A stretch of 64,000 nucleotides of DNA from an uncultured Verrucomicrobiae bacterium (GCA_963808535.1 CAWEGF010000023.1:66715-130714), one strand, 5' to 3'. Numbered from the stretch's first letter, positions 7,740 to 52,048 are shown. Made by a program: numbers and translations. The notes: a model not told the origin generated them from the letters alone.

Positions 7740-8534
7740 ATGAGTGCGGTTCGAACCGACTATCACATTCATACGACCCTCTGCCATCATGCCGTGGGCG
7801 ACCCGATTGAGTATGTGCGAGCCGCGCAGGACGCTGGGCTCACGGAGATCGGGTTCGCGGACCACAATCCGATGCCCGAACATTTCGACGAATGGCGGAT
7901 GTCGATTGAAGATTTACCTCGCTACCTTGAAATGGTAGAAGAGGCGCGGTCGACCGGTTTTCAGATCCGGCTGGGTCTCGAATGCGATTTTATCGAGGGA
8001 TACGAGTATTGGATCGAAGCGCTCGCCGGCCAGGCTCCTTGGGATTACTTAATCGGAAGTGTCCACTACATCGCTCCCGGTTGGGATGTAGATAATCCCA
8101 AATATTTATCCCGATTCAAAGAGCATCCAGTGGAAGAGATTTGGGCGCTTTATTGGAAACATTACGTTCGATGCATCGAGAGCGGACTGTTTGATTTTGT
8201 CGCGCACCCGGATCTGGCAAAAAAATTTGGCTATCGTCCCCTTGGAGATCTCGGAAGATACTATCGACCCGCCATCGAATCTTTGGCTAAGCACGACGTG
8301 GCGTTCGAGATAAACACGGCTGGCTTACGCAAGCAGGCCGAAGAAATATATCCGGCCTTCGAATTCGTCGCGATGGCGCGTGAAGCCGGGGTCTCCATGC
8401 TAATTAATTCTGACGCCCATGCACCCGGAGAGGTCGGATATAAGTTCGACCTGGCAAGAGATCTGGCCCGACAGGCTGGGTACACCAAGGTATGCCGGTT
8501 CGAAAAGCGACGACGGATCGACGTTGATTTATGA
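7740..8534 (+). CDS. histidinol-phosphatase, HisJ/PHP family
   Basis: 264-aa ORF with a PHP-domain pattern (DYHIHT..CHHA, GFADH, NSDAH). It overlaps folP by 4 nt (ATGA), suggesting an operon. Confidence 0.75.
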   Translation: MSAVRTDYHIHTTLCHHAVGDPIEYVRAAQDAGLTEIGFADHNPMPEHFDEWRMSIEDLPRYLEMVEEARSTGFQIRLGLECDFIEGYEYWIEALAGQAPWDYLIGSVHYIAPGWDVDNPKYLSRFKEHPVEEIWALYWKHYVRCIESGLFDFVAHPDLAKKFGYRPLGDLGRYYRPAIESLAKHDVAFEINTAGLRKQAEEIYPAFEFVAMAREAGVSMLINSDAHAPGEVGYKFDLARDLARQAGYTKVCRFEKRRRIDVDL

Positions 8535-9406
8535 TCCTGAGGATGCGGGATCGTTTGATCACGTTTCCTCGGCGTCCGTTAGTCATGGGGATCGTAAACG
8601 CCACCGACGATTCGTTTTCTGGAGATGGATCGTTGCAGATCCAACGCCATATCGAAACCGCGCAACGCCACGTCACTGACGGAGCCGACATCATCGACGT
8701 CGGAGGTGAAAGCGCGCGCACCAACCGTCTCGAAATCAGCGAGGCGGACGAGTCTGCACGAATCCTTCCGTTCGTTCACCGCTTCCAGGAATGTCATGAA
8801 GGAAAGAGTCCGATCGATAAGATCCAGATCTTTCCTCCACTGCTTTCGATTAATACCTGGCGATCGGGTGTGGTTGAAGCGACGCTTCCGTCCGGCGGGC
8901 AATTGGTAAATGATATAAGTGCGCTTCCGACGAGCGAGAATGCACGGATCGCGGCGCGTTTTGGCTGCGGTCTCCTGATCATGCATTCAATCGGTCTACC
9001 GAAACAGCGCCACACCGATGTTCAGTATGTGGATATCCTGCGCACTCTCGAGGGATTTTTTGATCAGAAGATTGGCCAGGCCATGGCCGCGGGACTGCCG
9101 CTTGAAGCGCTGATTCTCGATCCGGGCATCGATTTCGCGAAACAAAAACCGGACAATTTGCGCATTTACCGGGAACTAAAAACACTTACCAAATTCGAAC
9201 GCCCGATTCTTCTTCCGGTCTCCAGAAAGACGGTGATCGGTGACGTCCTTGGCATCGCGGAGCCGGCAGATCGAGACGCCGGAACCATAGCGTGCGTGGT
9301 AGCAGGAGTATTACGTGGCGCCACGATCTTCCGCGTTCATAATGTCCACGCTACGGTTCAAGCGTTAAGGGTCATCTACCCAATGGTCGATGACCCGAGG
9401 GCCTGA
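8531..9406 (+). CDS. folP: dihydropteroate synthase
   Basis: 291-aa ORF with pterin-binding motifs VMGIVNATDDSFSGDG, DVGGESARTN, LDPGIDFAK. Confidence 0.85.
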   Translation: MILRMRDRLITFPRRPLVMGIVNATDDSFSGDGSLQIQRHIETAQRHVTDGADIIDVGGESARTNRLEISEADESARILPFVHRFQECHEGKSPIDKIQIFPPLLSINTWRSGVVEATLPSGGQLVNDISALPTSENARIAARFGCGLLIMHSIGLPKQRHTDVQYVDILRTLEGFFDQKIGQAMAAGLPLEALILDPGIDFAKQKPDNLRIYRELKTLTKFERPILLPVSRKTVIGDVLGIAEPADRDAGTIACVVAGVLRGATIFRVHNVHATVQALRVIYPMVDDPRA

Positions 9407-9493
9407 AAAGTTGCCAGTGTCAGTTGTCGATTGCCAGCAGGGGAATGGGATCGAAAATCCGTCTCAAAGGGAACTCATAAACGAAAATAAGGA

Positions 9494-10303
9494 ATGGAGA
9501 GTTCTGAAGACTTTAAACGACTCGAAGGCGGAGGAAGCAACGCTGTTTCCCGGTCGGGAAGCATAACGCGGAGAAAGGTCGGTCCATGGAGTCCGCGAGT
9601 ACACGAATTCCTGGCATTCCTAAAGCACACGGGATTTCGGAATGCCCCGGAGGCTGTCGGCTTTGATGAGCACGGGAACGAACTGCTCACTTTCATTCCG
9701 GGAGAGGTTGGTAACTACCCTCTGAGTGACAGTATTCGTAGCGAGCGAGCGCTGGTCTCGGCAGCGAAGCTTTTGCGCCAATTCCACGATTGCAGCGTGG
9801 ACTTTATACCAAATCGCCTGACCGAGTGGATGTTCCCGGCAAGAAAACCGGTGGAAGTTATCTGTCATGGTGATTTCGCCCCGTACAACTGCGTTTTCAA
9901 CAACGAAGAAGCGATCGGAATCATTGACTTCGACACGGCTCATCCGGGTTCACGGCGATGGGATCTCGCGTATGCCCTTTACCGATTCGCCCCAATGACG
10001 TCGCCCACAAATGACGATGGATTTGGGAGCCTGCAGGACCAACTTCAGAGGGCCAGACTGTTTTGTGACTCGTATGGTCTGCCGGTTGACCAACGCCTGG
10101 CACTGCCGGCGTGGGTAATTTATCGACTCAGAACATTGCTAGAGTTCATTCGAAGCCAAGCGTTGCAAGGGAATATTAGCTGTCAAAAGAACATTGAAGC
10201 CGGGCACATCGAAAAATATGAAGGGGACATAAATTACATCGATTTACACGGTGAAGAATTCGCCAACCATCTCTCTGCTGAGGGACGGATTCTGGAGCGT
10301 TGA
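9494..10303 (+). CDS. phosphotransferase (aminoglycoside/choline kinase-like, APH family)
   Basis: 269-aa ORF with catalytic-loop motifs HGDFAPYNCVF and IDFDTAHPGSRRWDLAY. Confidence 0.7.
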   Translation: MESSEDFKRLEGGGSNAVSRSGSITRRKVGPWSPRVHEFLAFLKHTGFRNAPEAVGFDEHGNELLTFIPGEVGNYPLSDSIRSERALVSAAKLLRQFHDCSVDFIPNRLTEWMFPARKPVEVICHGDFAPYNCVFNNEEAIGIIDFDTAHPGSRRWDLAYALYRFAPMTSPTNDDGFGSLQDQLQRARLFCDSYGLPVDQRLALPAWVIYRLRTLLEFIRSQALQGNISCQKNIEAGHIEKYEGDINYIDLHGEEFANHLSAEGRILER

Positions 10304-11507: not shown

Positions 11508-13725
11508 ATGCAGAATTACGCGCGAGTCATCACCGATGACCCCACGGATAAAGAACTGGATTACTCAATTCCTCAAACGTGGGCCGGTAAAGTTCACATC
11601 GGCTCCCGGGTTAAAGTTCCGCTTCGTTCACGTGAAATATTAGCAACGGTTGTGGCCCTCGTCGACACGCCGTCGGTGCCCGAACCAAAAACTATATCGG
11701 CTCTGATTTCGGAGAGTCCAATTCTAAATAAATCGTTGTTGGCGTTGGCGCGTTGGATGGCGGAATACTATTGCTGTCCTGTGGAATCGGCGATCCGATC
11801 CCTTTTGCCCGAAGTAATCAGGAAGGCAAAACTCGGTTTTAAGCGCGAACGGATCATTTCAGTCAGCCGCGAGTTCTCCCAGGAAGAACTCCAAGCTCTC
11901 GAGGCAAAAGCCCCTCGCCAGGCCCAAGTCCTGAGATATGTGATTGAGCTGGCCGAAGTTATTCGCTGGAGAGAACTGCAAGAGCGGGCGGCGACTACGG
12001 ATCGGACGATTCAACAACTGGTCGATCGCGGCTTCCTGCAGGTCAAATTCGAAAATACAGACCGTGACCCGTACGCGAACGAGCACTTCGTCTCCAGCGT
12101 CGCGATCCAACTAAACACCGAGCAAAAGAATGCGCTGGAGATGGTCGTTCAGGCAGTGGACGCCCGAGACAACCGCCCGATCTTGCTTCATGGAGTGACC
12201 GGGAGTGGCAAAACAGAGGTTTACCTCCAGGCTATCGATCGTTGTCTGAAGCAGGATCTCGGCGCTCTGGTGCTGGTTCCGGAGATTTCCTTAACCCCGC
12301 AAACAGTTGAACGTTTCAAGATGCGCTTCCAAGCGGACCTGATCGCCGTGCTTCATAGTCACCTTTCGGCCGGCGAGCGGCACGACGAATGGCACAAACT
12401 CAACAGCGGCAGAGCGCGCGTTGCCATTGGTGCTCGTAGCGCTGTTTTTGCGCCGGTTCGAAGGCTTGGGTTGATCGTGGTCGACGAAGAGCACGAAACC
12501 TCCTACAAACAGGAGGAAGCGCCGCGTTATCAAGCCCGGGACCTGGCGGTTGTTCGGGCCCAAATCGATCGCTGCGCCATTCTACTTGGCAGCGCGACCC
12601 CCTCGTTGGAGAGCTATCAGAATGCCAAGACCGGAAAATACCGCCTGGCAAATTTGAGCTGCCGAGTTGACGATCGGGAACTCCCTTTGATTCGCGTGGT
12701 CGACATGCGACAGGAGTACCTCAAGCAGAAACACGTCCCTTTGATCTCCGGCCGCCTGGCGAGCGCGATCGAAGCTCGCTTGGTCGGCCAAGGAACAGAC
12801 AATTTTGTTCCTTAACCGGCGGGGGTTCGCCACCTCCCTGGTTTGTAATCAGTGCGGCTTCGTCTGCGACTGCCCGAATTGCAGCGTCGCCCTGACCTTC
12901 CATCAGGGAGAGAACCGGCTGAAATGTCATTTATGCGGCCATGCGACGGTCGCACCACGAAAATGCCCGAAATGTGCCGACCCTTCGATCCGCTATGCCG
13001 GGTATGGAACCGAGAAAATCGAGGGTACGGTGCGCAAACTTTTTCCGGCCGCCGCCGTCGCGAGAATGGATGCGGATTCAATGTCGCGAAAAGACGCCTA
13101 TCGCCAGACCTTACAAGCCTTTCGAACGGGCAAAATCGACATTTTAGTAGGGACGCAAATGATCGCCAAGGGACTGGATGTTCCGAACGTCACCTTGGTT
13201 GGTATCATCAACGCCGATGTCGGCTTGCATATGCCCGATTTCCGGGCTGGGGAAAGGACCTTTCAGCTTTTGACTCAGGTCGCCGGACGGGCCGGCAGAG
13301 GCGACATGGCCGGAGAAGTTTTTGTCCAGAGCTCGACCCCTTTCAGTCCGTCCATCCAGTTTGCTCGTCACCACAATTTCGAGGGATTCTGGGAACAGGA
13401 GATTGAGTTCCGGGAGCGGTGTGAATACCCCCCTTTTCTTCATCTGCTCATGATTCACATCCGCTCCGAACATCAGCGACTGGCGGAATTTACTGCTGAA
13501 ACCATTCACCGGAGGCTCAGTGAAAAACCAGATCCAGGTGTTACTCTGCATCCGGTGGTACCGGCGCCAATCGAACGATCAAAAGGCTTCTACCGTTACC
13601 AGATTCTCCTGCGGTCCAAAGCGATTCGCCGTCTCAGCGGCACCGTCCGTTCGATTCTCCAAAAACTGACCTTCCCGGAAGAAGTGCATGTCTCAGTTGA
13701 CGTGGATCCTTACCAGGTTCTGTAA
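11508..13725 (+). CDS. priA: primosomal protein N' (replication restart helicase PriA), frame broken near 12783-12790
   Basis: ORFs 11508..12815 and 12805..13725 together give a full PriA (GVTGSGKTEVY, VVDEEHE, Cys-rich CNQCGFVCDCPNCSVALTFH..CHLCGH). Junction is ..IEARL / AKEQTILFLNRRGFA... Confidence 0.9.
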
Positions 13726-15596: not shown

Positions 15597-16929
15597 AGAG
15601 CTTCAACCGAGCCAGAATGACGACATCGCGAACGGCGGTGTCAAATGGTTTACCTTTCTTTTCGACCAGCGGTTTGGCCAGGAAAAATGTGACGATTCCT
15701 AGCAGGGAAAGCAGAATAAAATAAATACTGAATCGATTGACCTGGAACAAGCCGATCGAAAACTCGTTTCTGCCCAAAATATCCAGGAAAACACCCCAGA
15801 AAATCGGCGCCAACCCAAGACTCAGGGAGGCGAATACAGTAAACAGCGAGAAGAAGTGATTCCGCCCCATCACCGGCATGGTGTCCATGGCGATGCGAGT
15901 GTTGGCGATCGAAAAGAGGCCGCCGGCGACACCGAGAATGAGATAGTTGGAGGCGACGAAAAAATAGTGGGCGGGCACTAACCCGCTCGTAACCACGACC
16001 CAGAAAAGGATCCCGACAAGATAAAGGGACATGGCTAGCTTCAGGAGAGGTTTGCTCCCGGTACGTTCCAGTATGAGACCGAAGAATGGAACGCTCCCAA
16101 AGGCTCCAACCGAAGCCGCCAGATTGACGGCCAAAACTTGTCCGGCGGTGTAACCCGCTCTTCCTTCAAGGAAAGCGATGACAAAAGCAGCTAGTCCCCC
16201 GACCACCCAGTTGTACACCACATTGAAGATCAACAACTTCGTAAAAGGAGGATATTTGAGTATTTCCAACCAAGGAACCGGTTGCCCGGAGGACTTGGAT
16301 TGTTCTCCGATCTCGAGATCTGGAATTTTGCGCACGAAATGGAGGCTCAACATCCCAGCCAGCATACTGATGACAAAGAGGAGAGAAAATTGCCAAGGTT
16401 TACCTCCCGACCAGAGAACCAGGGTCGAGACAGCGATGGCGATCATCCCTCCGCATTGCATATGGAGCTGGTCAGAACGAAGAAAAGCGGCGCGGGCATT
16501 CGCCGGCACCAGGCCTGTTAGCCAAGGAAGCCAGGCACCCGTCGAGATACCGCGCACGACGTTGAAGAGAAAAAGACAGGTGAGCATTAACTCCACCTGC
16601 ACTGCGGTGGAAAGAAAAACCAGCAAGGGTAAGATCGCCAGAATAAACAACAAGACGGCCCGAACTGACCATCCGAACAACACAAATCCTTTATAACCAA
16701 CTTTGGGAATGAAATAAGCCGTCGGAAGCTGAAGAACAGTCATGAGCGGCGCGAGGGAAGCGACAATACCGATCGTGGTCGCGCTGCCTCCCAATGATTT
16801 TGCGTACAAGATCATCGGTGCGCCCAGAGTGACCTGGAAATTCACGGCGTTGAACAAACTGAAGCGAAAAGAATTCGTCGCTTGTGGAGGAACCTCCTCA
16901 AGCGTTGAAGTTGCCTGGGGGTTGGTCAT
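15574..16929 (-). CDS. MFS transporter
   Basis: 451-aa ORF that is hydrophobic throughout with about 12 helix-length segments. Overlaps lolC/E by 23 nt. Confidence 0.7.
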   Translation of the reverse strand: MTNPQATSTLEEVPPQATNSFRFSLFNAVNFQVTLGAPMILYAKSLGGSATTIGIVASLAPLMTVLQLPTAYFIPKVGYKGFVLFGWSVRAVLLFILAILPLLVFLSTAVQVELMLTCLFLFNVVRGISTGAWLPWLTGLVPANARAAFLRSDQLHMQCGGMIAIAVSTLVLWSGGKPWQFSLLFVISMLAGMLSLHFVRKIPDLEIGEQSKSSGQPVPWLEILKYPPFTKLLIFNVVYNWVVGGLAAFVIAFLEGRAGYTAGQVLAVNLAASVGAFGSVPFFGLILERTGSKPLLKLAMSLYLVGILFWVVVTSGLVPAHYFFVASNYLILGVAGGLFSIANTRIAMDTMPVMGRNHFFSLFTVFASLSLGLAPIFWGVFLDILGRNEFSIGLFQVNRFSIYFILLSLLGIVTFFLAKPLVEKKGKPFDTAVRDVVILARLKLYGRFFNR

Positions 16930-18376
16930 TCCTGCGGTTTCGATTTCAGATGCGGAAACAAGATGACCTGCCGGATGGATTCCGCACCTGTGAGAGCCAT
17001 CACCAATCGATCGATCCCGATCCCAATCCCACCTGCTGGCGGCATCCCATGTTCCAGCGCGAGGAGAAAATCCTCATCGAGATCCTGAATTTCCGCGCCC
17101 ACCTGTTCTGTGAACCTCTGGCGCTGAACCAAGGGATCGTTCAGCTCAGAATACCCCGGAGATATCTCCTGGCCATTGATGATCAGCTCGTAAACGTCAA
17201 CCAGTGCCGGGTTCTCGGCATTTTGCTTTGCTAACGGCACAAGTTCGACCGGCAAGTGGGTGACAAAAAGAGGGTTGATGGTCCGTTCTTCCACCAGTTT
17301 CTCGAACACTTGCTGGGTTATCTCAAAGTCCTGCATCCCGGAATGCACTTCCACTCCGAGTTCCTGTCCACGCAAGAGCTTCTGCTCATGGTTACGCTCA
17401 TACCAAGTATGGTCCACCCCCCGAATCAGGTCTTCGTAACGGGCCCTTTTCCAGGGTCGGGAAAGATCGATTGTCGCTTGGTGTTTCCCTCGCTATCCTG
17501 GTGCGTGATCAGCAGTGACCCAGCGATCCGTTCAGCCAAATCGCAGATCATCTCCTCGACCAGGTTGGCCATCACCTCAAAATCAGCGTAGGCCCAATAA
17601 ACCTCCAGCATGGTAAACTCTGGATTGTGCCGACGGGAGATCCCTTCGTTCCGAAAGTTGCGATTGAGTTCAAATACCTTCGTAAATCCGCCGACCAACA
17701 ACCGCTTTAAATAGAGCTCCGGAGCTATTCGCAAAAAGAGATCCATGTCCAACGCCTTGTGATGGGTTTTGAACGGCTGAGCTGCCGCCCCACCCGCCAC
17801 CGGCTGCATCATTGGAGTCTCGACCTCAACGAAACCTCGATCATGCAAGTATTGCCGGATCTCGCGGATAATCCGGCTCCTGGTGAGGAAAACATCGCGC
17901 GCGGCCGGATTGGCGATCAGGTCAAGGTAGCGTTGCCGATTGCGGATCTCGATGTCACTGATCCCGTGCCACTTGTCGGGCAGTGGGCGTAACGTCTTAG
18001 ACAGAATTTGAAATTTCTCGACCCGAATTGTCGGTTCGCCGGTCTTGGTAACAAAGCCCTCTCCTTCGACTCCAAGAAAATCGCCAAGATCCAGCAACTG
18101 AAAAATTCCGGCCTCTTCCGGCGGCAACTCCTTCAGATTAATGTAAACTTGAAGCCGGCCACTGACATCGCTGAGATCAAGGAACTGGCTCTTTCCCATA
18201 TTGCGATGGGCCGTTATTCGACCCGCCACGCGCACTCGTTGGCCTTCCGCAAACGCCTGACGGACCTCTCCCACAGATCCGGAGACATCGAATCGACCTC
18301 CGAACGGGTCAACCTTCTGTTCAAGCAATTGCTGCAGCTTCTGCCGACGGAACGCAAGAAGATCGTTTTCTTCCAT
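16926..18376 (-). CDS. lysS: lysine--tRNA ligase (class II), frame broken within 17430-17490
   Basis: ORF 17426..18376 carries the OB fold and [31 protein letters not shown] 16926..17417 carries motif 3, [14 protein letters not shown]. Junction is ..EGNTKRQ / [25 protein letters not shown]... Confidence 0.9.
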
Positions 18377-18382
18377 GGAAGG

Positions 18383-18535
18383 CTGAATCAGGAGTCAGGA
18401 GTTGCAGGAGTTCAGGAATCAGGAGCCTTCGAGGCGAGGTAATCATCCAGAAAGGGGATTCGGAACTCCGAGGAATGCCGAACCGAATCAGTTACCCTCA
18501 TTCTGAAACTTCTGCACTCCTACCTGAATTCCGAG
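18383..18535. repeat. imperfect low-complexity palindrome (CAGGAG-word type) with a nested hairpin
   Basis: Left arm CTGAATCAGGAGTCAGGAGTTGCAGGAGTTCAGGAATCAGGAG. Right arm CATTCTGAAACTTCTGCACTCCTACCTGAATTCCGAG is roughly its reverse complement. Inner hairpin GATTCGG..CCGAATC. It nearly fills the lysS-ilvB gap. Confidence 0.6.
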
Positions 18536-18539
18536 CTCT

Positions 18540-20342
18540 CTACCCTTCGAACTTGCCGTGCCGCTCGTCAATGATGATGTCCCGATAGGTCTTCCCGGAA
18601 GGAATCATAGGCATCACGTGTTCCGTAAACGGAGTCATCACATCGAGAACATAGCATTCGTCAGAATCCAACATCCGTTGCAACGCTGCCTGCAAATCTT
18701 TCTTCTCAATCACGCGCTCGCACTTCACCCCAAAACCGCGGCAGAGCTCGACATAATCGGGATAAATTCTCTCCCGGTTCAGAGGATCGCCCAGGAAGGT
18801 ATGACCTCGATTACTGTTGTAGAATCGATCTTCCCACTGCACCACCATGCCAAGGTGCTGATTGTTGATGATAATGACCTTGGCAGCGATTTTCTCCACG
18901 TGAGCGCAAGCCAATTCCTGGACGTTCATCAGGAACGAACCGTCGCCATCGATGTCAATGACCTGGCGATTGGGGAAAGCCACTTTTGCTCCAAGCGCTG
19001 CCGGGAACCCAAAGCCCATGGCGCCCAGCCCGGCCGAGGTTAAAAACTGGCGTGGCTCGCTAAAGTCATAGTACTGACCCGCCCACATCTGATGCTGGCC
19101 GACGCCAGTCGTAATGATCGCGTCGCCCTCAGTCAGTTGATAGAGAAGCCGGATGACGTGCTGGGGCAAGATTGCCTGATCCGTATCCTTAAAATCCAAG
19201 GGATATCGCTCTTTCCACTGATGAATCTTGCCAAGCCAATCCGGAAAAAGATGGTAGTGACTGGAACTACGCTGATACCCGCCTGCCGCCAGCAGGCGGT
19301 TCAATTCGCCAAGAGCGAATTTTATATCACTGAGAACCGGCAATTTGACGACTTTGTTTTTGTTCAGTTCCGCAAAATCGATATCGATGTGAACGATGGT
19401 GCCGTGCTCTGCAAATTTCTCGACCTTCCCAGTGACCCGATCATCAAAGCGAACTCCCAGCGCCAGTAGAAGATCCGATTCATTGACCGCACAATTGGCA
19501 TAGACCGTTCCATGCATCCCCAGCCATTTGAGAGAAAGCGGATGCCTTTCTGGAAAACCGCCGATCCCCATTAGAGTCGTGGCCACGGGAATCTGGCTTC
19601 TTTCCGCGAACTCGAGAAGTTCACCCGCCGCATCGGCCGAGATGATTCCACCCCCAGCATAAATCATCGGCCTTTTCGCCGATTTGATCAGCCCGATGAT
19701 TTCATTAAGAGCCACCGGATCGGCCTTGGGAGGCAGCTGATATCCTCGCAAATTCAGTTCATTGGGGAAAACCGCCTGAGCCATCTGGGTCTGAATGTTC
19801 TTGGGGATATCGATCAGCACTGGCCCTGGCCGACCTGTCCTCGCGATATGAAATGCCTCTTTCACCACCCGCGGGATTTCGTGGATATCCATGATCAGAT
19901 AACTGTGCTTCACCACCGGCAATGTCATCCCGAAGACATCCGTTTCCTGGAAAGCTCCTCGTCCAATCATTTCCTGCGGAACCTGCCCGGTAATCGCGAC
20001 CATCGGAATCGAGTCCATGAAGGCGTCAGCAATTCCGGTGACTAGATTGGTCGCTCCGGGACCGGACGTCGCCATGCAAACACCCGGGTTGCCCGTCGCC
20101 CGTGCGTATCCCTCCGCAGCAAAGCTTCCGCCCTGCTCGTGGCGGGGGAGAATCGTGCGAATTTTAGTGGATCGCGTCAAAGCCTGATGAATCGGCATGC
20201 TGGCGCCGCCCGGATAAGCGAAAATTACCTCTACACCCTCTCGTTCCAGGGCGGCGACGAGAATCTCGGCGCCATTCATCGGTTCACCTCGGGTGGAGGC
20301 TTGACGTGTGGTGGCGGGTTCGTTGGCGATAGAGGTCTTCAT
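18540..20342 (-). CDS. ilvB: acetolactate synthase, large (catalytic) subunit
   Basis: 600-aa ORF with the ThDP-enzyme pattern [49 protein letters not shown]. No ilvN-like small subunit is adjacent. Confidence 0.85.
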
Positions 20343-20465
20343 AAAAAGAGTCGAACATTATAAGGGGTGGAGGCCCGGTGAGCAATCGTTAACCGCGGGG
20401 AGTGAAAAACGGCGGCCCGCGCTTCAAGAGTAGCTACCGCCCTCTTTGAATGTAGAATAGCTGTT

Positions 20466-39587: not shown

Positions 39588-39660
39588 CTGTCATAAATCG
39601 CCTCGAATCGATTCGGTCAAAGGGATCTTGGGTTAGCCTCCCTATATGGACCGAGGGCCT

Positions 39661-39945
39661 GCCCCGCAGGGGCTACAGAATTCAGCCCCGGGTTTCAACC
39701 CTGGGAACCCTCAAAAATAAACGGTTCGCCCTCATAAGGACCAGAGGTGCGGGTACCAGATGAAGCTCGCACCTATCGCCGCGCAAAAGTCAGGGTGTAA
39801 TTGGGACGTGTTACAATTGGACCATCGGACCCCGCTTTCGCCTTGTTCGGACGTCCGATCTGGCGCCCCCTTCAGGGCGCGTCGCTCTTGGTGGACGATT
39901 CCCAGCGTTGAAACCCTGGGCTGAGCGCTGTAGCCCCTTCGGGGC
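39661..39945 (+). repeat. family A structured element, copy A1 (285 bp)
   Basis: Bounded by GCCCCGCAGGGGCTACAGAAYTCAGCCCNGGGTTTCAACCCTGGGAA and its inverted complement. The internal core is shared with the other copies. The right flank carries a family C arm ending GCGCCATT at 40021-40028. Confidence 0.9.
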
Positions 39946-40085
39946 ACAAAAGAAAGGCCTCAGCCCGAGGATTGCGGCCTACAGCCTTTTCGGAGCAAAA
40001 TCCTCCCATGCCTTACCTTCGCGCCATTTTTGTCTGACCTCATTCCTTCGTACTGGTTTAGGGTCTATATATGGACCGAGTGCCT

Positions 40086-40349
40086 ACCCCGCAGGGGCTA
40101 CAGAACTCAGCCCAGGGTTTCAACCCTGGGAACCCTCAAATAAACGGTTCGCCCCGACGAAGGGGCGAGAGATGTGGGTACCAGATGAAGCTCACATCTT
40201 TTGCTGCGCAAAAGTCAGGGTGCAAAATTGGGACGTGTTACAATTGGAGCATCGGACCCCGCTTCGCCTTGTTAGGACGTCCGATCTTGGCGCCCCCTTC
40301 AGGGCGCGTCGCTCTTGGTGGACGATTCCCATGGTTGAAACCCTAGGCT
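40086..40349 (+). repeat. family A element, copy A2, 5' part (interrupted by family C insertion at 40350)
   Basis: The same termini and core as A1, but the right terminus stops at ..TTGAAACCCTAGGCT. It resumes at 40772 (see the next features). Confidence 0.9.
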
Positions 40350-40771
40350 GAATGGCGCGAAGATAAGGAGAATTTGGGATGGGCTCTATAGATAAAACCA
40401 AGAACCTGCCCCGCAGGGGCTACAGAACTCAGCCCAGGGTTTTAACCCTGGGAATCCTCAAAATAAACGGTTCGCCCTGAAGGGGCGAGAGATGCGGGTA
40501 CCCGATTAAGGTCGCACCTATTGCCGCGCAAAAGCCAGAGTGCGCAACTGTGCGACAATTGGACCATCGAACCCCACTTCCCCCCTTGTTAGGACGTTCG
40601 ATCTGGCGCCCCTTCAGGGCGCATCGCTCTTGGTGAACGATTCCCAGGGTTGAAACCCTGGGCTGAGTTCTGTAGCCCCTGCGGGGCATAAAACGAAGAC
40701 CTCAGCCCTAGGATTGTGGCCTACAGACCTTTCGGAACAAAATCATTCTATTCCTTAACTTAGCGCCATTC
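40350..40771 (+). mobile_element. family C non-autonomous element, insertion C1 (422 bp), carrying family A copy A3
   Basis: Termini are GAATGGCGCGAAGATAAGGAG... and ...CCTTAACTTAGCGCCATTC (imperfect inverted repeats). It is flanked by a perfect 11-bp direct repeat AACCCTAGGCT (40339-40349 and 40772-40782). Removing the element plus one repeat restores an intact family A terminus. Confidence 0.85.
40408..40687 (+). repeat. family A element, copy A3 (280 bp), inside insertion C1
   Basis: Full termini and core. The loop of the internal AGATGCG/CGCACCT hairpin has diverged while the stem is kept. Confidence 0.9.
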
Positions 40772-40805
40772 AACCCTAGGCTGAGTTCTGTAGCCCCTGC
40801 GGGGC
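40772..40805 (+). repeat. family A element, copy A2, 3' end (continuation of 40086-40349)
   Basis: AACCCTAGGCTGAGTTCTGTAGCCCCTGCGGGGC is the right-terminus remainder, beginning with the duplicated 11-mer. Confidence 0.85.
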
Positions 40806-40946
40806 ATAAAACAAAGGCCTCAGCCCGAGGATTGCGGCCTACAGCCCTTTCGTCGGAGCAAAATCATCCCAAGCCTTATCTTCGCCAATCTGGTCTGACC
40901 CCATTCCTTCGTACTGGGTTAGCCTCTCTATATGGACCGAGGGCCT

Positions 40947-40980
40947 GCCCCGCAGGGGCTTCAGAATTCAGCCCAGGGTT
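40947..40980 (+). repeat. family A element, copy A4, 5' end (interrupted by family C insertion at 40981)
   Basis: GCCCCGCAGGGGCTTCAGAATTCAGCCCAGGGTT is the left terminus, cut after AGCCCAGGGTT. Confidence 0.85.
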
Positions 40981-41422
40981 GAATGGCGCTAAGTTAAGGG
41001 TAGTTTGAGATGTTTTTGCCCTGAAGAATCTTGCTCACGCCCTCCCTAGAAGCCGTTGGAACCGTCTGCAAGCCCGTCCCGGAGGGACAGACCGATCGTA
41101 GCCTGGCACGAAGTGCCTGGGAGAGCACCACTCCAAAAGAACCGTCCCGTAGGGTACGGTATGATCGGGCGCAGCTAATGACGTTCTCGATCGATTCGTG
41201 CTTACACCTGAAAGAATCACACCGTACCCTACGGGACGGATCTTTTGGGGTGGTACTCTCCCAGGCACTTCGTGCCAGGCTACGATCGCATCGTCCCTCC
41301 GGGACTTTTCAAACTTTCAAACAAGCTTTAGCTAGGGAAGAGAACTTGAAATTTGAGCGGGATTTTGCAGAGAAGCCAGGGCAAAATAAATCGCCTACGT
41401 CCTCCTTATCTTCGCGCCATTC
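40981..41422 (+). mobile_element. family C non-autonomous element, insertion C2 (442 bp), carrying family B copy 2
   Basis: Termini are GAATGGCGCTAAGTTAAGGG... and ...CCTCCTTATCTTCGCGCCATTC. It is flanked by a perfect 11-bp direct repeat AGCCCAGGGTT (40970-40980 and 41423-41433). Removing it restores an intact family A left terminus. Confidence 0.85.
41076..41305. repeat. family B hairpin-chain element, copy 2 (230 bp), nested in C2
   Basis: The same inverted termini as 10395-10640 (GTCCCGGAGGGAC..GCCTGGCACGAAGTGCCTGG..GTCCCGTAGGGTACGG). The central part is only partly similar. Confidence 0.85.
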
Positions 41423-41680
41423 AGCCCAGGGTTTCAACCCTGGGAACCTTCAAAATCAACGGTTCGCCCTGAAAGGGCGAGAGATCCGGGTATTAGATGA
41501 AGCTCGCACCTATCGCCGCGCAAAAGTCAGGGTGCGCAATTGGCGTGTTACAATTGGACCATCGGACACCGCTTCCGCTTGTTAGGACGTTCGATCTGGC
41601 GCCCCTTCAGGGCGCGTCGCTCTTGTTGGACGATTCCCAGGGTTGAAACCCTGGGCTGAGTTCTGTAGCCCCTCCGGGGC
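41423..41680 (+). repeat. family A element, copy A4, 3' part
   Basis: Starts with the duplicated AGCCCAGGGTT, then the core and right terminus. It shares diagnostic variants (..CTTCAAAATCAACGG.., GATCCGGGTATTAGATG) with copy A5. Confidence 0.9.
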
Positions 41681-41813
41681 ACCAAACAAACGCCTCAACC
41701 CAAGGATTGTGGCCTATAAGTTTTCGGAGCACAATCCTCCCAAGCCTTATCTTCGCCAATCTGGTCTGACCCCATTCCTTCGTACTGGGTCTCTCTATAT
41801 GGACCGAGGGCCT

Positions 41814-42108
41814 GCCCCGCAGGGGCTTCAGAATTCAGCCCAGGGTTGAGCCCAGGGTTTCAACCCTGGGAACCTTCAAAATCAACGGTTCGCCCTGAAA
41901 GGGCGAGAGATCCGGGTATTAGATGAAGCTCGCACCTATCGCCGCGCAAAAGTCACGGTGCGCAATTGGCGTGTTACAATTGGACCATCGGACACCGCTT
42001 CCGTCTGGTTAGGACGATCGATCTGACACCCCCTTCAGGGCGCGTCGCTCTTGTTGGACGATTCCCAGGGTTGAAACCCTGGGCTGAGTTCTGTAGCCCC
42101 TCCGGGGC
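41814..42108 (+). repeat. family A element, copy A5 (295 bp) with 12-nt footprint-like duplication
   Basis: Full termini and core. It contains AGCCCAGGGTT-G-AGCCCAGGGTT at 41837-41859, exactly at the position where C2 sits in the sister copy A4. Confidence 0.9.
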
Positions 42109-42511
42109 ACCAAACAAACGCCTCAACCCAAGGATTGCCGAGTGCAGCTTCTCGCTACAGACAATTCCAACTCCGTTGGAATTTTAAGTTACTGCCTTCG
42201 GCGATCAAGGCCGTCCATAGCGCAGTCTGCTGGAGGATTAGCAAGCTGACTCTCCTGACCTGCGCTGGATCTTTCGTTCCATTTACCACCACCGATCAAC
42301 GCGTTATGAAAAAGCCTGAAACTTTAGGAATCAGATCTCGTTGTAACCAACTGACAGCAAAAACCACAGCCGCCTCGGCGGCATCCCTCAAGACCGATAT
42401 AAACTTAGCAACCCAATAATACAGATGAAAATTGTAACCAACATTCTAAAAACATACGGTAATAACACCGCTGCCCTCACTACTCCGACGTTTGCAACTT
42501 TTTCGAATAAC

Positions 42512-43150
42512 ATGCGTTTGATGAAGAAGATCGCTCTGCTATCGACCCTTGTTTTAGGGACGGCCTTGGTCCCCCTTGCCAAGGCGGCTCCCCTGCCAGT
42601 ATCTCCCGCACTTGCACCCGGAAGTGTGAATACGCTTAACTTCCATATGATCCCATCTCCCGGATTGCCCGCGGGATTACAGAACGCCGGGGCAAATATT
42701 ATAGTGCACACTGACGGCCCTGTGGAAGTCATGGAAGTATACGTGGCCGGGTTACCGGCCAACACGGATTTCGACTTCTTTGTTATTCAAAAGCCCAATG
42801 CACCATTCGGCTTGTCCTGGTATCAAGGCGACATTGAGACTGACGCTAACGGGCAGGGCTTCGCTTTATTCATTGGACGCTTCAATGTGGAGACTTTTCT
42901 CGTCTCACCACAAGCCGTACCAGCTCCGGTAGTGTTTAATAACACCTTTCCAGATAGTAACATTGGTGCCCTGGTGGGTCGGGTCCACACTTATCACTGC
43001 GGGTTATGGTTCAATTCACCGGTCGATGCAGCTAACGCGGGAGCCGGTGGGGCCATCACCCCTTTCAATGGTGAAGGCAATGCCGGTAGACAAGTCCTCA
43101 ATACCGCGAATTTTCCCGATCTAGCGGGCCCGTTGATCAACATCAGGTGA
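42512..43150 (+). CDS. secreted hypothetical protein
   Basis: ORF 42425..43150, with the start moved to the ATG at 42512, which gives a signal peptide MRLMKKIALLSTLVLGTALVPLAKA/AP. No family recognised. Confidence 0.6.
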   Translation: MRLMKKIALLSTLVLGTALVPLAKAAPLPVSPALAPGSVNTLNFHMIPSPGLPAGLQNAGANIIVHTDGPVEVMEVYVAGLPANTDFDFFVIQKPNAPFGLSWYQGDIETDANGQGFALFIGRFNVETFLVSPQAVPAPVVFNNTFPDSNIGALVGRVHTYHCGLWFNSPVDAANAGAGGAITPFNGEGNAGRQVLNTANFPDLAGPLINIR

Positions 43151-43210: not shown

Positions 43211-43315
43211 ATTACAATATTTGACCTCTTCCAACCTGGCAATGCAATGGGGATGGTCGATCCACCAACCGCTAACGGCACCTCAAAGAATTCCAACCGG
43301 TGCTGGCTGTTCCGT

Positions 43316-43951
43316 TCAGGCGGAAACATCGTGGCTTTGCGGTCCATAAATTTTCTCCTCCAACCTCTTCAGCGCCAGGGTCGCTGCAATATTTGCGGCC
43401 CGCACCACATTTTTCCCGACGGTAGCCTCGCCAGTCAAGCGAGGCGCTTGCCACGTCGGCAATCCAAATAACGTATCCATGTACTGCACCGGCATAATCT
43501 CTGACAAATCCCGTTTATTATAAAAGAACACGATGGGAATGTGCTGCAGGGTCAGATTTTGTCTTCCCTCCAAACACATGCCACGGTCGGAGAGCAACTC
43601 TTCCAGGTCGTTGAGCATCTCAAGATTTCTCGATGCGGCTTCGTATTGGCTGTCTGCGACAAAGACTACGGCATCGGTTGAAGCAAGGACCAGATGCCGA
43701 GTCCTTCGATATTTTTGTTGGCCAGGCAAAGTCCAATAGAGAAATTTGACTTCCAGATTGTTAGCCGGCAATTTGTGCGATTGAGCGTATTCGAAAAACA
43801 CCGAGCGGTCATCCGTGGTCGGCAACTCTGTCACAGCGGTCTCAAGACGCAACGAGAGATATCTTAGAGAAGTTGTTTTTCCGGCGTAGGCGGGTCCGTA
43901 ATAAACCACCTTCAATTGAGCCTCGTAAGTCACCCAGTTTACGTATGCCAT
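43316..43951 (-). CDS. MglA-family Ras-like small GTPase
   Basis: ORF 43316..43993, with the start set at the ATG at 43951 behind a strong GGAGGAGG SD. Motifs: KVVYYGPAYAGKTTSL (P-loop), TTDDRSVFFEY (switch I), LYWTLPGQ (G3), VVFVADSQ, YNKRDL (G4). The order and spacing are as in MglA. Confidence 0.8.
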   Translation of the reverse strand: MAYVNWVTYEAQLKVVYYGPAYAGKTTSLRYLSLRLETAVTELPTTDDRSVFFEYAQSHKLPANNLEVKFLYWTLPGQQKYRRTRHLVLASTDAVVFVADSQYEAASRNLEMLNDLEELLSDRGMCLEGRQNLTLQHIPIVFFYNKRDLSEIMPVQYMDTLFGLPTWQAPRLTGEATVGKNVVRAANIAATLALKRLEEKIYGPQSHDVSA

Positions 43952-44119
43952 TCTTTTCCTCCTCCTGCTCTTGGCGATTCTTCTCCAATGCAATGTTTAA
44001 TACTGACACCGTCCTGCTTGACTCCAGCACAAGCTTCTTTTGACCGACGACGACACTTTCCCGCACAGCATCACAGTTTTTATCTTCTTCAGCATAATTA
44101 CTCAACATTTAAAACGTTA

Positions 44120-44443
44120 TTACATGCGGTTAATCGCAAGATACCATTTGCGACGATTCTTCAAGATGCCCGAGACAGGTTGACAGCGATACGACAGGTC
44201 GAAAAACATTGGCAGCTTTTGACGATCCGAAACAGTCCAGAAGCCGATCCGATCACTGAGAATCAGACTCCGCTGATTCGTCACTCGCCTAGTAATATCG
44301 CCGTTGAAATTTCCAAAATTTCCTCCCCGAACGACAGGATTTCCAGACTGCTCCAAATTCGCTTGGAAGTCTCGAGTTTGAAACGAACAAAAGGCAGCCG
44401 TCAGAATAGCCCGGGCCACCCGAGGCGTTTGCTGAGGCCCCAT
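44120..44443 (-). CDS. hypothetical protein (possibly the C-terminal part of 44401..44979 after an indel)
   Basis: A 107-aa ORF overlapping the 3' end of the upstream ORF by 43 nt. A G4 run (C4 on the plus strand, 44438-44441) lies in the overlap. No family recognised. Confidence 0.35.
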   Translation of the reverse strand: MGPQQTPRVARAILTAAFCSFQTRDFQANLEQSGNPVVRGGNFGNFNGDITRRVTNQRSLILSDRIGFWTVSDRQKLPMFFDLSYRCQPVSGILKNRRKWYLAINRM

Positions 44444-44979
44444 CGGTTGATTGCGGCATTCCAGACCGCTCGGCCGACGATGGGATGTTTAACTGCGGTC
44501 AGAAACTGCCCGAGATGATCGTACTCGGGTATCCGTTGGGAAGTCTCGTATCGGTTCACCTTGGTTGCCACCGCGTTGGCGATGTCGTGAGCATCTGGGG
44601 AACCGGGGACACCTCGGTCGATTCGTGCCCAAGTAATCATTTCGGCTTCGCTCTCTAAGATCAGCAGACAGTAATGTGTTAATTTCGCCACGGTAACGGC
44701 GCTCAAGTGTCCAGGGGTGGCAAGCAAAGTACGATCGATATGATGATCAAACGATTCGGCACTAAAGAAATCGAGCTTCAATTTGTCGATCAAATCCTGA
44801 ACCGCGTAAGGATACTCCTTTTCACAATCCCGGATAAATTCGGCTAGCGTAGTCTTCGAACCAGGTCCAGGTGCTGGCCCAAAATTATAGGGAAAACTTA
44901 AATGCAGGCGACTGATCTCTATCAACTGCTCGTCGTTAACAGTCGTCAGTTTTGGCAACGATCGTTTGCTGTTCAACAC
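44401..44979 (-). CDS. hypothetical protein
   Basis: A 192-aa ORF, 92 nt downstream of rep on the same strand. No family recognised. Confidence 0.5.
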   Translation of the reverse strand: MLNSKRSLPKLTTVNDEQLIEISRLHLSFPYNFGPAPGPGSKTTLAEFIRDCEKEYPYAVQDLIDKLKLDFFSAESFDHHIDRTLLATPGHLSAVTVAKLTHYCLLILESEAEMITWARIDRGVPGSPDAHDIANAVATKVNRYETSQRIPEYDHLGQFLTAVKHPIVGRAVWNAAINRWGLSKRLGWPGLF

Positions 44980-45071
44980 AACCTCTTTTCAGGTTCCCTG
45001 AGAGGCAATAGCTAATGGCAAGGGCACCGGTCGAAAACTACCTCCACTTTAACCGGTCGCCACGCCAAAAT

Positions 45072-45836
45072 TCAAGACAGACCAGAGGTTTTCTGGCCGC
45101 CATTGCGGTGTTGCTGAAGTTTTATGTCGAAAGTAAGCGTAGTGATCCGTCGATGACGAGATCGCCCCAATTCCTCCAGGGAGATCTTCAAATCGGTTTT
45201 TTTATTTATTTCCGCAATCGCCGTATCCAAAGCCCTTTGACGTAAGTTCGCCCAAACAGGTAAAGGTGCTTCCTGGATGATGTTTCCTGCCTGATCCCTG
45301 ATCGACTCCAGCCCCAGCACCTTTCGCAGTCGGTCCAAGGAAACCCGCTTGCTGCCAACCGCAGCATATTTTTTGGCCCAATTGTAAAGCCGGAGCGAAT
45401 ATTGACTGCGGAGCCGAAGCTTGGCTGATTTTTCGCTAAGATAGGTAGGCAGAAGCTTTTTCAACTCCAACCAAATATTCTCAAAGCGCGGACTGAACGT
45501 TAAAAAAACTTCCGGATTTTCGATTCCGCGCACCTGCACAGCTTCCAGCCATCGGGTATAACTAGTAATGATTTGGGAATCTTTGATTTCTTCGATCACC
45601 AGGCGATAGTTAGCGGCCAACCGCAAAGCCGGTTTGAGGACCTTCTGGCCTCCAACGGAAATAGGCTCGGTCTGTCCTGGTCGATATTTTGCAAGAGCAA
45701 AATTCAAGAGGTGGCGTTCCGGTTCGGTGAGCATGAAATAACTTTTCTGCACACCAATTGGCAGGGATTCCTCGAGCCCCTTATCGATGATGCTGTTGGG
45801 CAGCCGAGCTTGAATTGATGTTTTTGCTGTCGCCAT
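45072..45836 (-). CDS. plasmid-type replication initiator protein (Rep_3 / RepA-RepB-like)
   Basis: 254-aa ORF: MLTEPERHLLNFALAK, SQYSLRLYNWAKKYAAVGSKRVSLDRLRKVLGLE, and QRALDTAIAEINKKTDLKISLEE..GRR.ITTLTFDI. This matches the two winged-helix pattern of Rep_3 initiators as I remember it. Confidence 0.7.
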   Translation of the reverse strand: MATAKTSIQARLPNSIIDKGLEESLPIGVQKSYFMLTEPERHLLNFALAKYRPGQTEPISVGGQKVLKPALRLAANYRLVIEEIKDSQIITSYTRWLEAVQVRGIENPEVFLTFSPRFENIWLELKKLLPTYLSEKSAKLRLRSQYSLRLYNWAKKYAAVGSKRVSLDRLRKVLGLESIRDQAGNIIQEAPLPVWANLRQRALDTAIAEINKKTDLKISLEELGRSRHRRITTLTFDIKLQQHRNGGQKTSGLS

Positions 45837-45953
45837 GGTGAAGATCTGATTACTAGAGCCGTTGAATTAGCGGAAATTACATGAACTCGGCATTTACCTT
45901 TACATCGTCCGAAAAACGTTATCAATAATGCATTACATATAAAAGGCTTGACC

Positions 45954-46382
45954 ATGATGAGCGCGGTCGAAATCAGACACCGAATCAACAAAAACTGGAA
46001 CTTTGGCACGAAGCAACAACCCCTGTCGCTCGACGAATTCCTGGAGAAAAAATCTCTGCACTTCGAATTTTTTACCGGTGCCGAGCCGTGGGTCGCCAAT
46101 CATGACCAGGTGACTTGGGAGAATTTCTTCCGGTTTTGCACGGAAGAAATGGACGACCTTTCAAAGTTAACCTGCGGCATGGTCATTGCCTATTGCATTT
46201 CAGTTATTGAGCAATTGAAGTCCAAGATCAAGCGACCCGTAACCCGGACAAAGATCCAGGAGGCTCTGCTCGCCGGATACGAAGAGGCCTACGAAAACCC
46301 AGTTTTTCAATTTCGATGGGCGATGCGGCATGCTGTCGTAGCGGAAGCGGTTACCGTGGTATTACGAAATCTGGAAGAATAG
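45954..46382 (+). CDS. hypothetical protein
   Basis: ORF 45948..46382. The ATG at 45954 follows AAAAGG. It is divergent from rep across an AT-rich 117-bp spacer. No family recognised. Confidence 0.5.
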   Translation: MMSAVEIRHRINKNWNFGTKQQPLSLDEFLEKKSLHFEFFTGAEPWVANHDQVTWENFFRFCTEEMDDLSKLTCGMVIAYCISVIEQLKSKIKRPVTRTKIQEALLAGYEEAYENPVFQFRWAMRHAVVAEAVTVVLRNLEE

Positions 46383-46884: not shown

Positions 46885-46936
46885 CGAATCGACCCAGCAC
46901 TCCTCCCGAATGACATCCGACCGGCGGCCGTGACGT

Positions 46937-47170
46937 GGGGAGCGCAGAGGGGGAGAAGAGGGCACGGAGAAGAATATTTTACCACAGAGACACAGAGGGC
47001 ACGGAGTTTCAGAAAAAAATTTTACTATTCGGATGGCAAATCCGAATCTGTCCGCGAGCGACGGATAGCGAGGCACCAAAAATTTAACGGGAGGCCATCA
47101 CGATCCCCAAATTTCATTTCTGAAACTCCGTGCTCTCTGTGTCTCTGTGGTAAATAGGTCTTCTCCGTGC
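46937..47170. repeat. long near-perfect palindrome (CACAGAGACACAGAG family) in the convergent GNAT/citrate synthase gap
   Basis: 46962-47015 GCACGGAGAAGAATATTTTACCACAGAGACACAGAGGGCACGGAGTTTCAGAAA is close to the reverse complement of 47117-47170. The spacer of about 100 nt contains ATTCGGAT..ATCCGAAT. The left extension GGGGAGCGCAGAGGGGGAGAAGAGG matches the 30378 element. Confidence 0.85.
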
Positions 47171-47226
47171 ACTAACCGACCCGCTTGCCTGAGCGTCCAA
47201 ACACCTCGATTCAACTCTTCGAAAAC

Positions 47227-51493: not shown

Positions 51494-52048
51494 TTGATGG
51501 CGTCTAACATTGAGATCAAGGCTCGTTCCAAAGACTTTGCGAATCAAAAGAAGCTTGCTGAGAAGATCTCCGGCGGAACTCCTGAGCTCTTGATTCAAGA
51601 GGACATTTTCTTTCGAGTCCCCCAGGGAAGATTGAAGCTTCGGATTTTGGGACCCCATCAGGGGGAATTGATTGCCTATTCGCGTCCCGACCAACCAGTC
51701 ATCAAACAATCGACTTACGAAATCTTCAGGACGACCTATCCGGAAAGACTTCGGATCACCCTAAGCTCGGCATTGCCAGTCGAGTGTACTGTCCGGAAGC
51801 GTCGATCCCTTTACCATATCGGCCAATCCAGAATGCATTTTGACGAGGTTGAGGGATTAGGAGAATTCATCGAACTTGAATTTGTCCTCGAGGAGGATCA
51901 ACCGCCGACGGAAGGTCACGCCATCGTCCAGCACTTGATGATAGACCTTGGAATTCGCGAGGAGGATTTGATCGATGTTGCTTACGCAGACCTGCTGAAT
52001 GAGACCCCAATCATTGATCCTCCCGACTCGGGTGAGCGAGGCAATTGA
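51494..52048 (+). CDS. CYTH domain protein (class IV adenylate cyclase/triphosphatase-like)
   Basis: 184-aa ORF beginning ..NIEIKAR (the ExExK motif of CYTH). The length and pattern resemble CyaB-type proteins. Confidence 0.65.
   Translation: MMASNIEIKARSKDFANQKKLAEKISGGTPELLIQEDIFFRVPQGRLKLRILGPHQGELIAYSRPDQPVIKQSTYEIFRTTYPERLRITLSSALPVECTVRKRRSLYHIGQSRMHFDEVEGLGEFIELEFVLEEDQPPTEGHAIVQHLMIDLGIREEDLIDVAYADLLNETPIIDPPDSGERGN

Follow-up and report, generated by a model that had tools for sequence, protein, structure and literature searches.

We analysed a 64,000-nt stretch of DNA from an uncultured Verrucomicrobiae bacterium (GCA_963808535.1 CAWEGF010000023.1:66715-130714; the whole stretch is called the window below), in which a gene for a plasmid-type Rep_3 replication initiator (rep) lies close to a gene for a small GTPase of the MglA family. 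A six-frame list of open reading frames (ORFs) contains all five ORFs that a first-pass annotation of this DNA had described for the region, with the same coordinates and strands. These are, on the minus strand, rep (45072-45836), a 192-aa ORF (o192, 44401-44979), a 107-aa ORF (44120-44443) and the GTPase gene (43316-43951), and, on the plus strand and divergent from rep, a further ORF (o144, 45954-46382). The spacings also hold, i.e. a gap of 92 nt between rep and o192, an overlap of 43 nt between o192 and the 107-aa ORF, and 168 nt between the latter and the GTPase gene, the ATG of which is preceded by the Shine-Dalgarno-type motif GGAGGAGG.

Profile searches confirmed that the rep product is a genuine Rep_3 protein. 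The intact protein of 254 aa, with two winged-helix domains (WH1 and WH2), scores above the cut-offs of both Pfam models, i.e. 44.4 bits versus 21.1 for Rep3_C (PF21205) and 25.6 bits versus 22.4 for Rep3_N (PF01051), although in the latter case the second half of the WH1 model alone is matched, at positions 68-141. The first 80 residues match no model, and the matches to NCBIfam RepM and RepE are below threshold. The Rep profile aligns with the WH2 domain of the R6K pi protein (2nra; E 2e-6). More than 600 homologues were found, and the close named ones belong to Chthoniobacterales or Verrucomicrobia; orthologues at the same locus are 77-98% identical and occur in at least 12 species. Rep proteins in a plasmid database of 72,556 records reach at most 39% identity, in partial stretches covering at most 59% of the protein. 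No Rep relatives were found in a scan of viral contigs, and no exact-sequence matches to the Rep and the GTPase of the window were found.

The two ORFs next to rep, o144 and o192, are paralogous (pairwise E 8e-8, collinear alignment), and they encode proteins of 142-144 aa and 192 aa, respectively. Orthologues of o144 beside rep are 65-88% identical, with lower values for the copies at two more distant loci, L018 (49%) and L035 (46%). The corresponding values for o192 are 60-79%, and 41% for the L035 copy. A joint profile retrieved no more than 282 proteins after clustering at 90%, each belonging to either the 144-aa or the 192-aa type, and an exhaustive HMMER profile search of 1.84 billion proteins yielded 108 representative clusters, the Pfam content of which is uninformative (one PUF and one PAS match, probably spurious or chimeric). 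AF2 models of both proteins are all-helical (pLDDT 80 for o144 and 72 for o192); they have no fold match in the PDB at E<1, and o144 has no match in Pfam, NCBIfam or PADLOC. Both o144 and o192 are real, conserved genes of a small, lineage-restricted family of helical proteins that flank rep.

The GTPase (211 aa, intact) matches the Pfam Arf model with 44.7 bits. Comparison with solved structures assigns it to MglA, as the first-pass annotation had done: the best matches are MglA of Thermus and Myxococcus, with E values of 2e-25 to 9e-25, versus 2e-4 for the best Arf structure. Residues 1-196 match the MglA structures 3t12 (E 1.8e-25) and 5ymx (E 7.3e-25). The segments WTLPGQ, DDRSVFF and NKRD are invariant in the GTPase alignment and align with the corresponding residues of Thermus MglA, so that the MglA-type TxxGQ G3 motif (with Thr instead of Asp), the intrinsic arginine (DR(S/T)) and the catalytic Gln are retained; there is also an 8-residue insertion before the NKxD motif. 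Of more than 2,500 homologues, the close named ones are again from Chthoniobacterales/Verrucomicrobia, and the orthologues are 78-98% identical.

In related genomes these genes are part of a longer series. We read the gene order from contigs of 129-861 kb that encode GTPases with 82-86% identity. It runs sucC, glyoxalase, sucD, citrate synthase, GNAT (minus strand), the 144-aa gene (minus strand), Rep3 (plus strand) and the 192-aa gene, followed by a 366-aa gene (o366), a PATAN(DUF4388)/FGE-sulfatase gene, the GTPase gene and a 127-aa gene (o127), and then by a gene for a 349-aa T2SSE ATPase, a 145-aa gene (o145), leuA (minus strand), recJ and recG. The window is collinear with this order from 31 kb to 51.4 kb; its collinearity with the closest relative, L120, ends at 52006. 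The full cluster comprises o144 (divergent), the Rep_3 gene, o192, o366, the PATAN/FGE-sulfatase gene, the MglA-like GTPase gene, the genes for a prepilin-like protein and a PilT-like ATPase, and o145.

Several of the products in the relatives are of pilus type. The gene upstream of the GTPase gene encodes a PATAN(DUF4388) and an FGE-sulfatase domain. The 127-aa protein carries a leader of prepilin type (KAG/FTLLETLVVLL in L035, degenerate in L001), and its Pfam N_methyl match is weak in this cluster and on record for the homologue in L029. Residues 50-334 of the ATPase match Aquifex PilT (2gsz; E 9e-57); its best NCBIfam match is pilT_fam (TIGR01420) with 258.7 bits, below the cut-off of 319.1, and the next families are TraJ (141) and DotB (120). 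The o145 product combines a coiled coil with a membrane helix at its C-terminus. For o366, sub-threshold matches to PF03524 (CagX/VirB9/TrbG) were obtained in six of the seven family members, always in the same N-terminal region and with 12.7-17.9 bits versus a cut-off of 34.2; the o366 profile has no match in the PDB. PADLOC returned no defence-system match for any cluster protein, only weak P-loop and MotA-like noise.

Five genes of the cluster are missing from the window, and the GTPase gene is the only survivor of its pilus-type set. Using blastn of the window against L120 (86-92% nucleotide identity), we mapped two deletions, both of recent date. The first has removed 3.7 kb (L120 1228-4920), i.e. 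the genes for the prepilin-like 127-aa protein and the PilT-like ATPase as well as o145, and has its junction at 43215-43255; tblastn of the window found no o127, T2SSE or o145. The second has removed 2.4 kb with o366 and most of the PATAN/FGE gene, and its junction lies at about 44354-44373. The adjoining minus-strand segment 44222-44371 represents the last 50 codons of the PATAN/FGE gene, corresponding to residues 372-421 of the L001 protein (66% identity, tblastn; blastn against L120 agrees). The 107-aa ORF, previously listed as an orphan gene beside o192 and o144, is no gene but a deletion scar, since its frame is open across the junction and contains these last 50 FGE-sulfatase codons. 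The two deletions have thus produced the false look of a rep-orphan-GTPase operon, and the minus-strand gene string that had been taken for an apparent operon is their leftover rather than an ancestral arrangement. The case illustrates for annotation that lineage-specific deletions can fake both such an operon and an orphan ORF.

The cluster is old. It is syntenic between citrate synthase/GNAT and leuA-recJ in at least 12 species-level relatives from Chthoniobacterales/Verrucomicrobiae, on contigs of 100-861 kb (loci L001-L015, L019, L038 and L120). About a dozen metagenome-assembled genomes (MAGs) of this set came from a Rep-alignment scan of one genome per GTDB species; the metagenome contig L038 and the closest relative (L120/L121) were found beyond that scan. 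The window also encodes acetolactate synthase as well as LeuS, PriA, AccC, UvrD, RecG, RecJ and BipA, and the latter seven housekeeping genes indicate that it belongs to an essential replicon. The region had been described as more AT-rich than its surroundings, and a slight difference does exist, with a GC content of 0.48-0.50 at 43-46 kb versus about 0.53 in the flanks. However, this small excess is gone at third codon positions (0.57-0.61 for cluster genes versus 0.58-0.62 for flanking genes), so that there is no compositional shift.

To quantify selection, we estimated dN/dS among orthologues with the Nei-Gojobori method, noting that synonymous sites are near saturation (dS about 1.3). The values are 0.083 for Rep, 0.090 for o144, 0.152 for o192 and 0.051 for the GTPase, versus 0.051, 0.064 and 0.105 for the comparison genes citrate synthase, RecJ and GNAT, respectively. 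Pairwise distances among the Rep proteins follow those of three neighbours, with rho values of 0.61 for citrate synthase, 0.87 for the GTPase and 0.81 for o144, and Rep is intact at this locus in every relative examined. By these measures, the Rep copy is a fixed part of the chromosome, strong purifying selection acts on it, and its divergence parallels that of the neighbouring genes. Rather than a recent plasmid insertion, the locus is a long-standing gene cluster that a Chthoniobacterales (Verrucomicrobiota) lineage has passed on vertically in its chromosome. A recent or decaying insertion is contradicted by the synteny in at least 12 species, the lack of a shift in third-position GC and the Rep dN/dS of 0.08; synteny in relatives without a compositional shift likewise counts against the integrated replicon remnant that had been proposed. 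We found no description in the literature of a Rep_3 protein fixed in Verrucomicrobia chromosomes.

Relatives of this Rep do occur in mobile contexts. One paralogue with 68% identity lies between two tyrosine-recombinase genes, together with DUF3560 and a TIR-STAND gene. The element, of about 10 kb, recurs in three soil metagenomes (L117-L119); beside this intact Rep and the two tyrosine recombinases it carries DUF3560, UPF0149, a HATPase_c_3 protein and a TIR-STAND-WD40 gene. This element is a candidate for a live integrative plasmid-like element of the lineage. The MAG MFD06435.bin.2.21 contains five further Rep_3 paralogue copies beside the syntenic one, most of them frameshifted or truncated. 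Dead copies of related rep genes in the MAGs that have the orthologous loci are found at L016 and L020-L027. The L016 pseudogene has an in-frame stop due to a TGG-to-stop change; its contexts are uninformative. The Rep copies in these MAGs are a graveyard of related elements, and the Rep family is of mobile origin. The interpretation of the first-pass annotation is supported in part: the integrase-linked paralogue and the dead copies make a mobile-element ancestry of this Rep plausible, but the gene is neither decaying nor recently acquired.

The dead copies, together with the live, integrase-linked ones, point to repeated invasion, and this raises the question of whether the fixed Rep could act as an anti-plasmid factor that hampers newly arriving elements of its own family through incompatibility, with iteron titration or handcuffing as the mechanism. 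Inhibition of replication by an excess of Rep_3 initiator is established plasmid biology and would provide the means, and at one locus, L015, Rep has been retained on its own. However, the repeat searches defined no iterons for any member of the family, leaving such a factor with no identified target, PADLOC gave no match, and the argument is purely inferential. We regard this role as improbable.

The 118-nt spacer between o144 and rep, the sole AT-rich stretch by rep, contains invariant blocks in an alignment of 12 orthologous spacers, which define a conserved, promoter-like core at 45891-45940 (minus strand; ..ATGTAATGCATTATTGATAACGTTTTTCGGACGATGTAAAGGTAAAT..). The element TTGAnAACGTT(G/T)TT precedes rep also in mobile paralogues and in distant copies, and for this reason the core is probably rep's own promoter/operator. 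A scan of the spacer with the sigma-70 consensus gave no match, and the core is thus defined by the alignment alone. In contrast to this spacer, the one between rep and o192 (28-108 nt) is not conserved among relatives.

Features of a replication origin were not detected. Iterons near rep had been suggested as something to look for, but a repeat search of 42.4-47.3 kb found no iteron array, only two-copy repeat families at chance level, and the Rep loci L016 and L035 and those of the mobile paralogues L116 and L117 likewise gave no array with at least three direct repeats. The DnaA box TTATCCACA, with at most one mismatch, has 8 matches in the 64 kb versus 7.9 expected; none of them lies between 33 and 49 kb, and the closest, at 49223, is inside sucD, 3.4 kb from rep. 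The GC skew has a negative value to the left as well as to the right of rep, without a change of sign there. We also considered that the contig may be a chromid replicated by this Rep; the local features speak against an origin at the locus.

These results bear on the possibility that Rep is still an active initiator, either at a secondary or replacement chromosomal origin in or near the locus or, in trans, for Rep-less elements. Both WH domains are kept under strong constraint, Rep is retained at L015 where its neighbours are lost, and no dnaA was seen in the 64-kb window, a weak argument given how little of the genome the window covers. On the other hand, iterons, DnaA boxes and a conserved AT-rich unwinding element beyond the promoter-like core are lacking, the sign of the GC skew is unchanged, and transcription of the TCA-cycle genes on the right runs in the direction of rep, head-on to forks from an origin there. 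Initiators of secondary chromosomes such as Vibrio RctB adjoin an evident origin, complete with iterons, DnaA boxes and par genes (PMC6090056). The locus resembles RctB in having a plasmid-derived initiator gene under selection on a replicon with essential genes, but the three accompanying features are absent beside this rep. An active initiator is accordingly very unlikely.

Taken together, the cluster is best read as an ancient, domesticated fragment of a mobile element. With a confidence slightly above even, we favour the explanation that the Rep_3 protein has been domesticated here as a DNA-binding protein, fixed in the chromosome and accompanied by two lineage-specific partners, and that its gene lies beside a half-deleted pilus-control cassette of the orphan-MglA/PATAN/PilT type. 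Rep would no longer fire a local origin and would be kept as a sequence-specific DNA-binding protein. Since Rep_3 dimers classically repress their own promoter, the conserved core in front of rep would be the most likely binding site of this protein, perhaps alongside others in trans. The proteins o144 and o192 are putative lineage-specific partners of Rep. Compared with iteron-type initiators of the Rep_3 family (R6K pi, F RepE, pPS10/pSC101 RepA), the protein shares the two winged-helix domains, an own conserved promoter and paralogues on mobile elements. It differs from these plasmid initiators in that its gene is a fixed, single-copy part of an essential chromosome and keeps its synteny from species to species, and in that iterons, DnaA boxes and par genes are missing beside it.

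The GTPase of this explanation would be a nucleotide switch that acts on a PilT-type pilus motor via the PATAN-domain protein, by analogy with MglA and SofG, and not a DNA segregation factor. An MglB (Roadblock/LC7) gene lies within a few genes in 390 of 449 MglA family members; MglA genes are found near PATAN-domain genes, the family has MglB-less "orphan" members, and SofG acts on PilB/PilT (PMC4316618). No MglB gene (Robl_LC7) was found in the window or in L001-L005, L035 and L120, and because no Roadblock/LC7 gene is near it we place the GTPase among the orphan MglA-type GTPases. It resembles orphan MglA/SofG also in its full-length similarity to MglA and, in the relatives, in its PATAN neighbour and the PilT-like ATPase. 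A 39%-identical Verrucomicrobia paralogue (P0068) has canonical Roadblock/LC7 neighbours together with PilB-like and Tad genes, and our GTPase is about 38% identical or less to the canonical Verrucomicrobia MglA that is paired with Roadblock/LC7 genes. Its fixed partners in relatives, a small prepilin-like protein and a tail-anchored coiled-coil protein, set it apart from known MglA systems.

The first-pass annotation had proposed a different function, with the GTPase as the maintenance or positioning module of an integrated replicon, in place of ParA, ParM or TubZ. It is true that rep and the GTPase gene are neighbours in the clade and in L035, that no canonical par gene is present, and that the GTPase lacks an adjacent MglB. 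However, the close adjacency in the window was made by the 2.4-kb deletion, and the constant partners in the relatives (the PATAN protein, the prepilin-like protein and the PilT-like ATPase) are of pilus type. Neither a centromere-binding adaptor gene nor a centromere-like repeat array was found by the GTPase gene. There are loci that keep Rep but not the GTPase and others that have the GTPase but not Rep, and the Rep-bearing mobile paralogues lack such a GTPase. The suggested search of plasmid databases for a joint occurrence of the two gave only the remote Rep matches described above and, in the 72,556 records, a single weak match to the GTPase (28% identity, on a Deinococcus megaplasmid); conversely, no Rep was found in 73 canonical MglA loci (542 kb). 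We found no description in the literature of MglA-like GTPases on conjugative elements. The resemblance to ParA/ParB, ParM/ParR and TubZ/TubR is confined to location, with an NTPase encoded within a few genes of rep; an adaptor, centromere repeats and a plasmid context are missing, and both the family to which the NTPase belongs and its partners are those of pilus regulation. A partition role is thus largely refuted, and we consider its probability to be minimal. The alternative that had been offered, in which a polarity-type GTPase of the chromosome just happens to be encoded next to rep, came closer to the truth, but the association of the neighbours is much deeper than chance synteny would predict.

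The depth of the association is evident from distant loci. A 52.6-kb contig (L029/L035), with a GTPase of 48% identity, has o144 (minus strand), Rep, o192, o366, FGE, GTPase, prepilin-like, PilT-like and o145 genes in the same order. The proteins are 28-51% identical to those of the cluster (o145 lowest, the others 40-51%), unrelated genes such as those for a K+ channel and an RES toxin are inserted among them, and the flanks are unrelated. In L018 (Rep 56% identical), Rep, o144, o366, PATAN/FGE and o145 are still together after rearrangement. The adjacency of Rep and the GTPase cassette therefore outlasts chance synteny, and the whole cluster may have a functional coherence or a common mobile origin.

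The genes can nevertheless be separated. L015 has only citrate synthase-GNAT-Rep-o145-leuA, i.e. Rep is kept and the GTPase lost; in L008 and L010-L012 the losses are the pilin-like and the PilT-like gene. Conversely, the GTPase cassette occurs without Rep in L032-34, L036 and L111. In L032-34 the GTPase-pilin-PilT-o145 core lies beside genes for topoisomerase III, SSB, an RES toxin and a PilB/GspE-like ATPase. L036 contains, at 8440-9500, an 84%-identical GTPase gene followed by o145, in the context of RtcB, an HNH protein and a TMEM175-like channel; there is no rep within 8.4 kb of this pair, which either is an extra copy or has been relocated. In L120, about 5 kb beyond sucC, we observed a type II secretion/type IV pilus gene set (15878-20429) for a 729-aa GspE/PilB-like ATPase, a 427-aa protein, an N_methyl pseudopilin and a secretin, which places a pilus or secretion apparatus close to the cluster.

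These distributions are relevant for the possibility that the whole cluster is a domesticated module of a conjugative or integrative plasmid that still works as a unit, e.g. as a GTPase-gated, pilus-type machine acting on Rep-recognised DNA in transfer, uptake or element maintenance. Gene set and order are kept in L035 at 40-51% identity despite different flanks, and a partial set is kept in L018. The neighbourhood of the core in L032-34 (topoisomerase III, SSB, RES, PilB/GspE-like ATPase) would fit such a machine, as would the CagX/VirB9/TrbG matches of o366, which are consistent in six of seven members if sub-threshold, the plasmid families TraJ and DotB as second-best matches of the ATPase, and the Rep paralogues in integrase-bearing elements. 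In contrast, genes have been lost piecemeal with the rest intact (L008 and L010-L012, L015, and the window without five genes), and the cassette is found without Rep. The CagX scores of o366 do not exceed 17.9 bits versus the cut-off of 34.2, the ATPase is clearly closest to PilT, and the cluster contains no relaxase, coupling protein, VirB4 or integrase. We view such a working module as unlikely, albeit the most serious of the competing explanations. The narrower claim that the nine-gene set is a single undescribed plasmid-derived system, in which a Rep-type DNA binder is coupled to a GTPase-gated pilus-type motor for DNA export, uptake or element maintenance, seems to us somewhat more doubtful still; if true, it would account for the set staying together at 40-50% identity in unrelated contexts.

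Some of these observations weigh against the favoured explanation of a domesticated Rep_3 regulator beside a pilus-control cassette. L015 keeps Rep with only o145, and a Rep that persists without the GTPase cassette must be more than a mere regulator of that cassette. The order kept in L035 at 40-50% identity and the rearranged L018 hint at a tighter functional unit than a regulator plus neighbours. Moreover, we infer the regulatory role of Rep from the absent origin features and from general Rep_3 biology.

Plasmid-initiator genes in chromosomes are usually read as insertion debris, whereas this one is intact, clade-wide and under constraint at the level of housekeeping genes. It occurs in a clade of abundant, uncultured soil Verrucomicrobia, without an origin and flanked by two paralogous proteins known nowhere else. 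It is therefore a clean candidate for an exapted Rep_3 protein, be it as a regulator, an incompatibility factor or a part of a larger machine. The GTPase, in turn, defines an MglB-less MglA subfamily with fixed partners, i.e. the PATAN/FGE protein, the prepilin-like protein, the PilT-like ATPase and the coiled-coil membrane protein.

Several features around the cluster were also characterised. On its left lies, outside the cluster, a hypothetical gene on the plus strand (42425-43150) for a 241-aa protein with a signal-peptide-like N-terminus and no Pfam match. It is kept at the matching place in the closest relative (L120 440-1165, 86% nucleotide identity) and, because of this conservation, is a real lineage-specific gene. 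On the right, the interval between GNAT and citrate synthase contains a 247-nt palindromic insertion (46925-47171) that is absent from L120; its 65-nt inverted arms (46959-47023 and 47109-47173) are 86% complementary, resembling a miniature inverted-repeat transposable element (MITE).

Elsewhere in the window, leuS is represented by two overlapping ORFs (5043-6860 and 6694-7650) and priA by two ORFs (11508-12815 and 12805-13725), and for a class II aminoacyl-tRNA synthetase ORF (17426-18376) the Pfam match covers no more than the first half of the model. These split or truncated ORFs are due either to sequencing or assembly frameshifts or to real pseudogenes. The "mobile-element nest" at 39600-42200 consists of at least five copies of a repeat of about 430 nt in both orientations. 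The overlapping ORFs with GFNPGN-like translations in this nest are probably repeat artefacts, and the repeats have seven matches to the Acido-Lenti-1 RNA (RF01687, Rfam), four of them above the gathering score.

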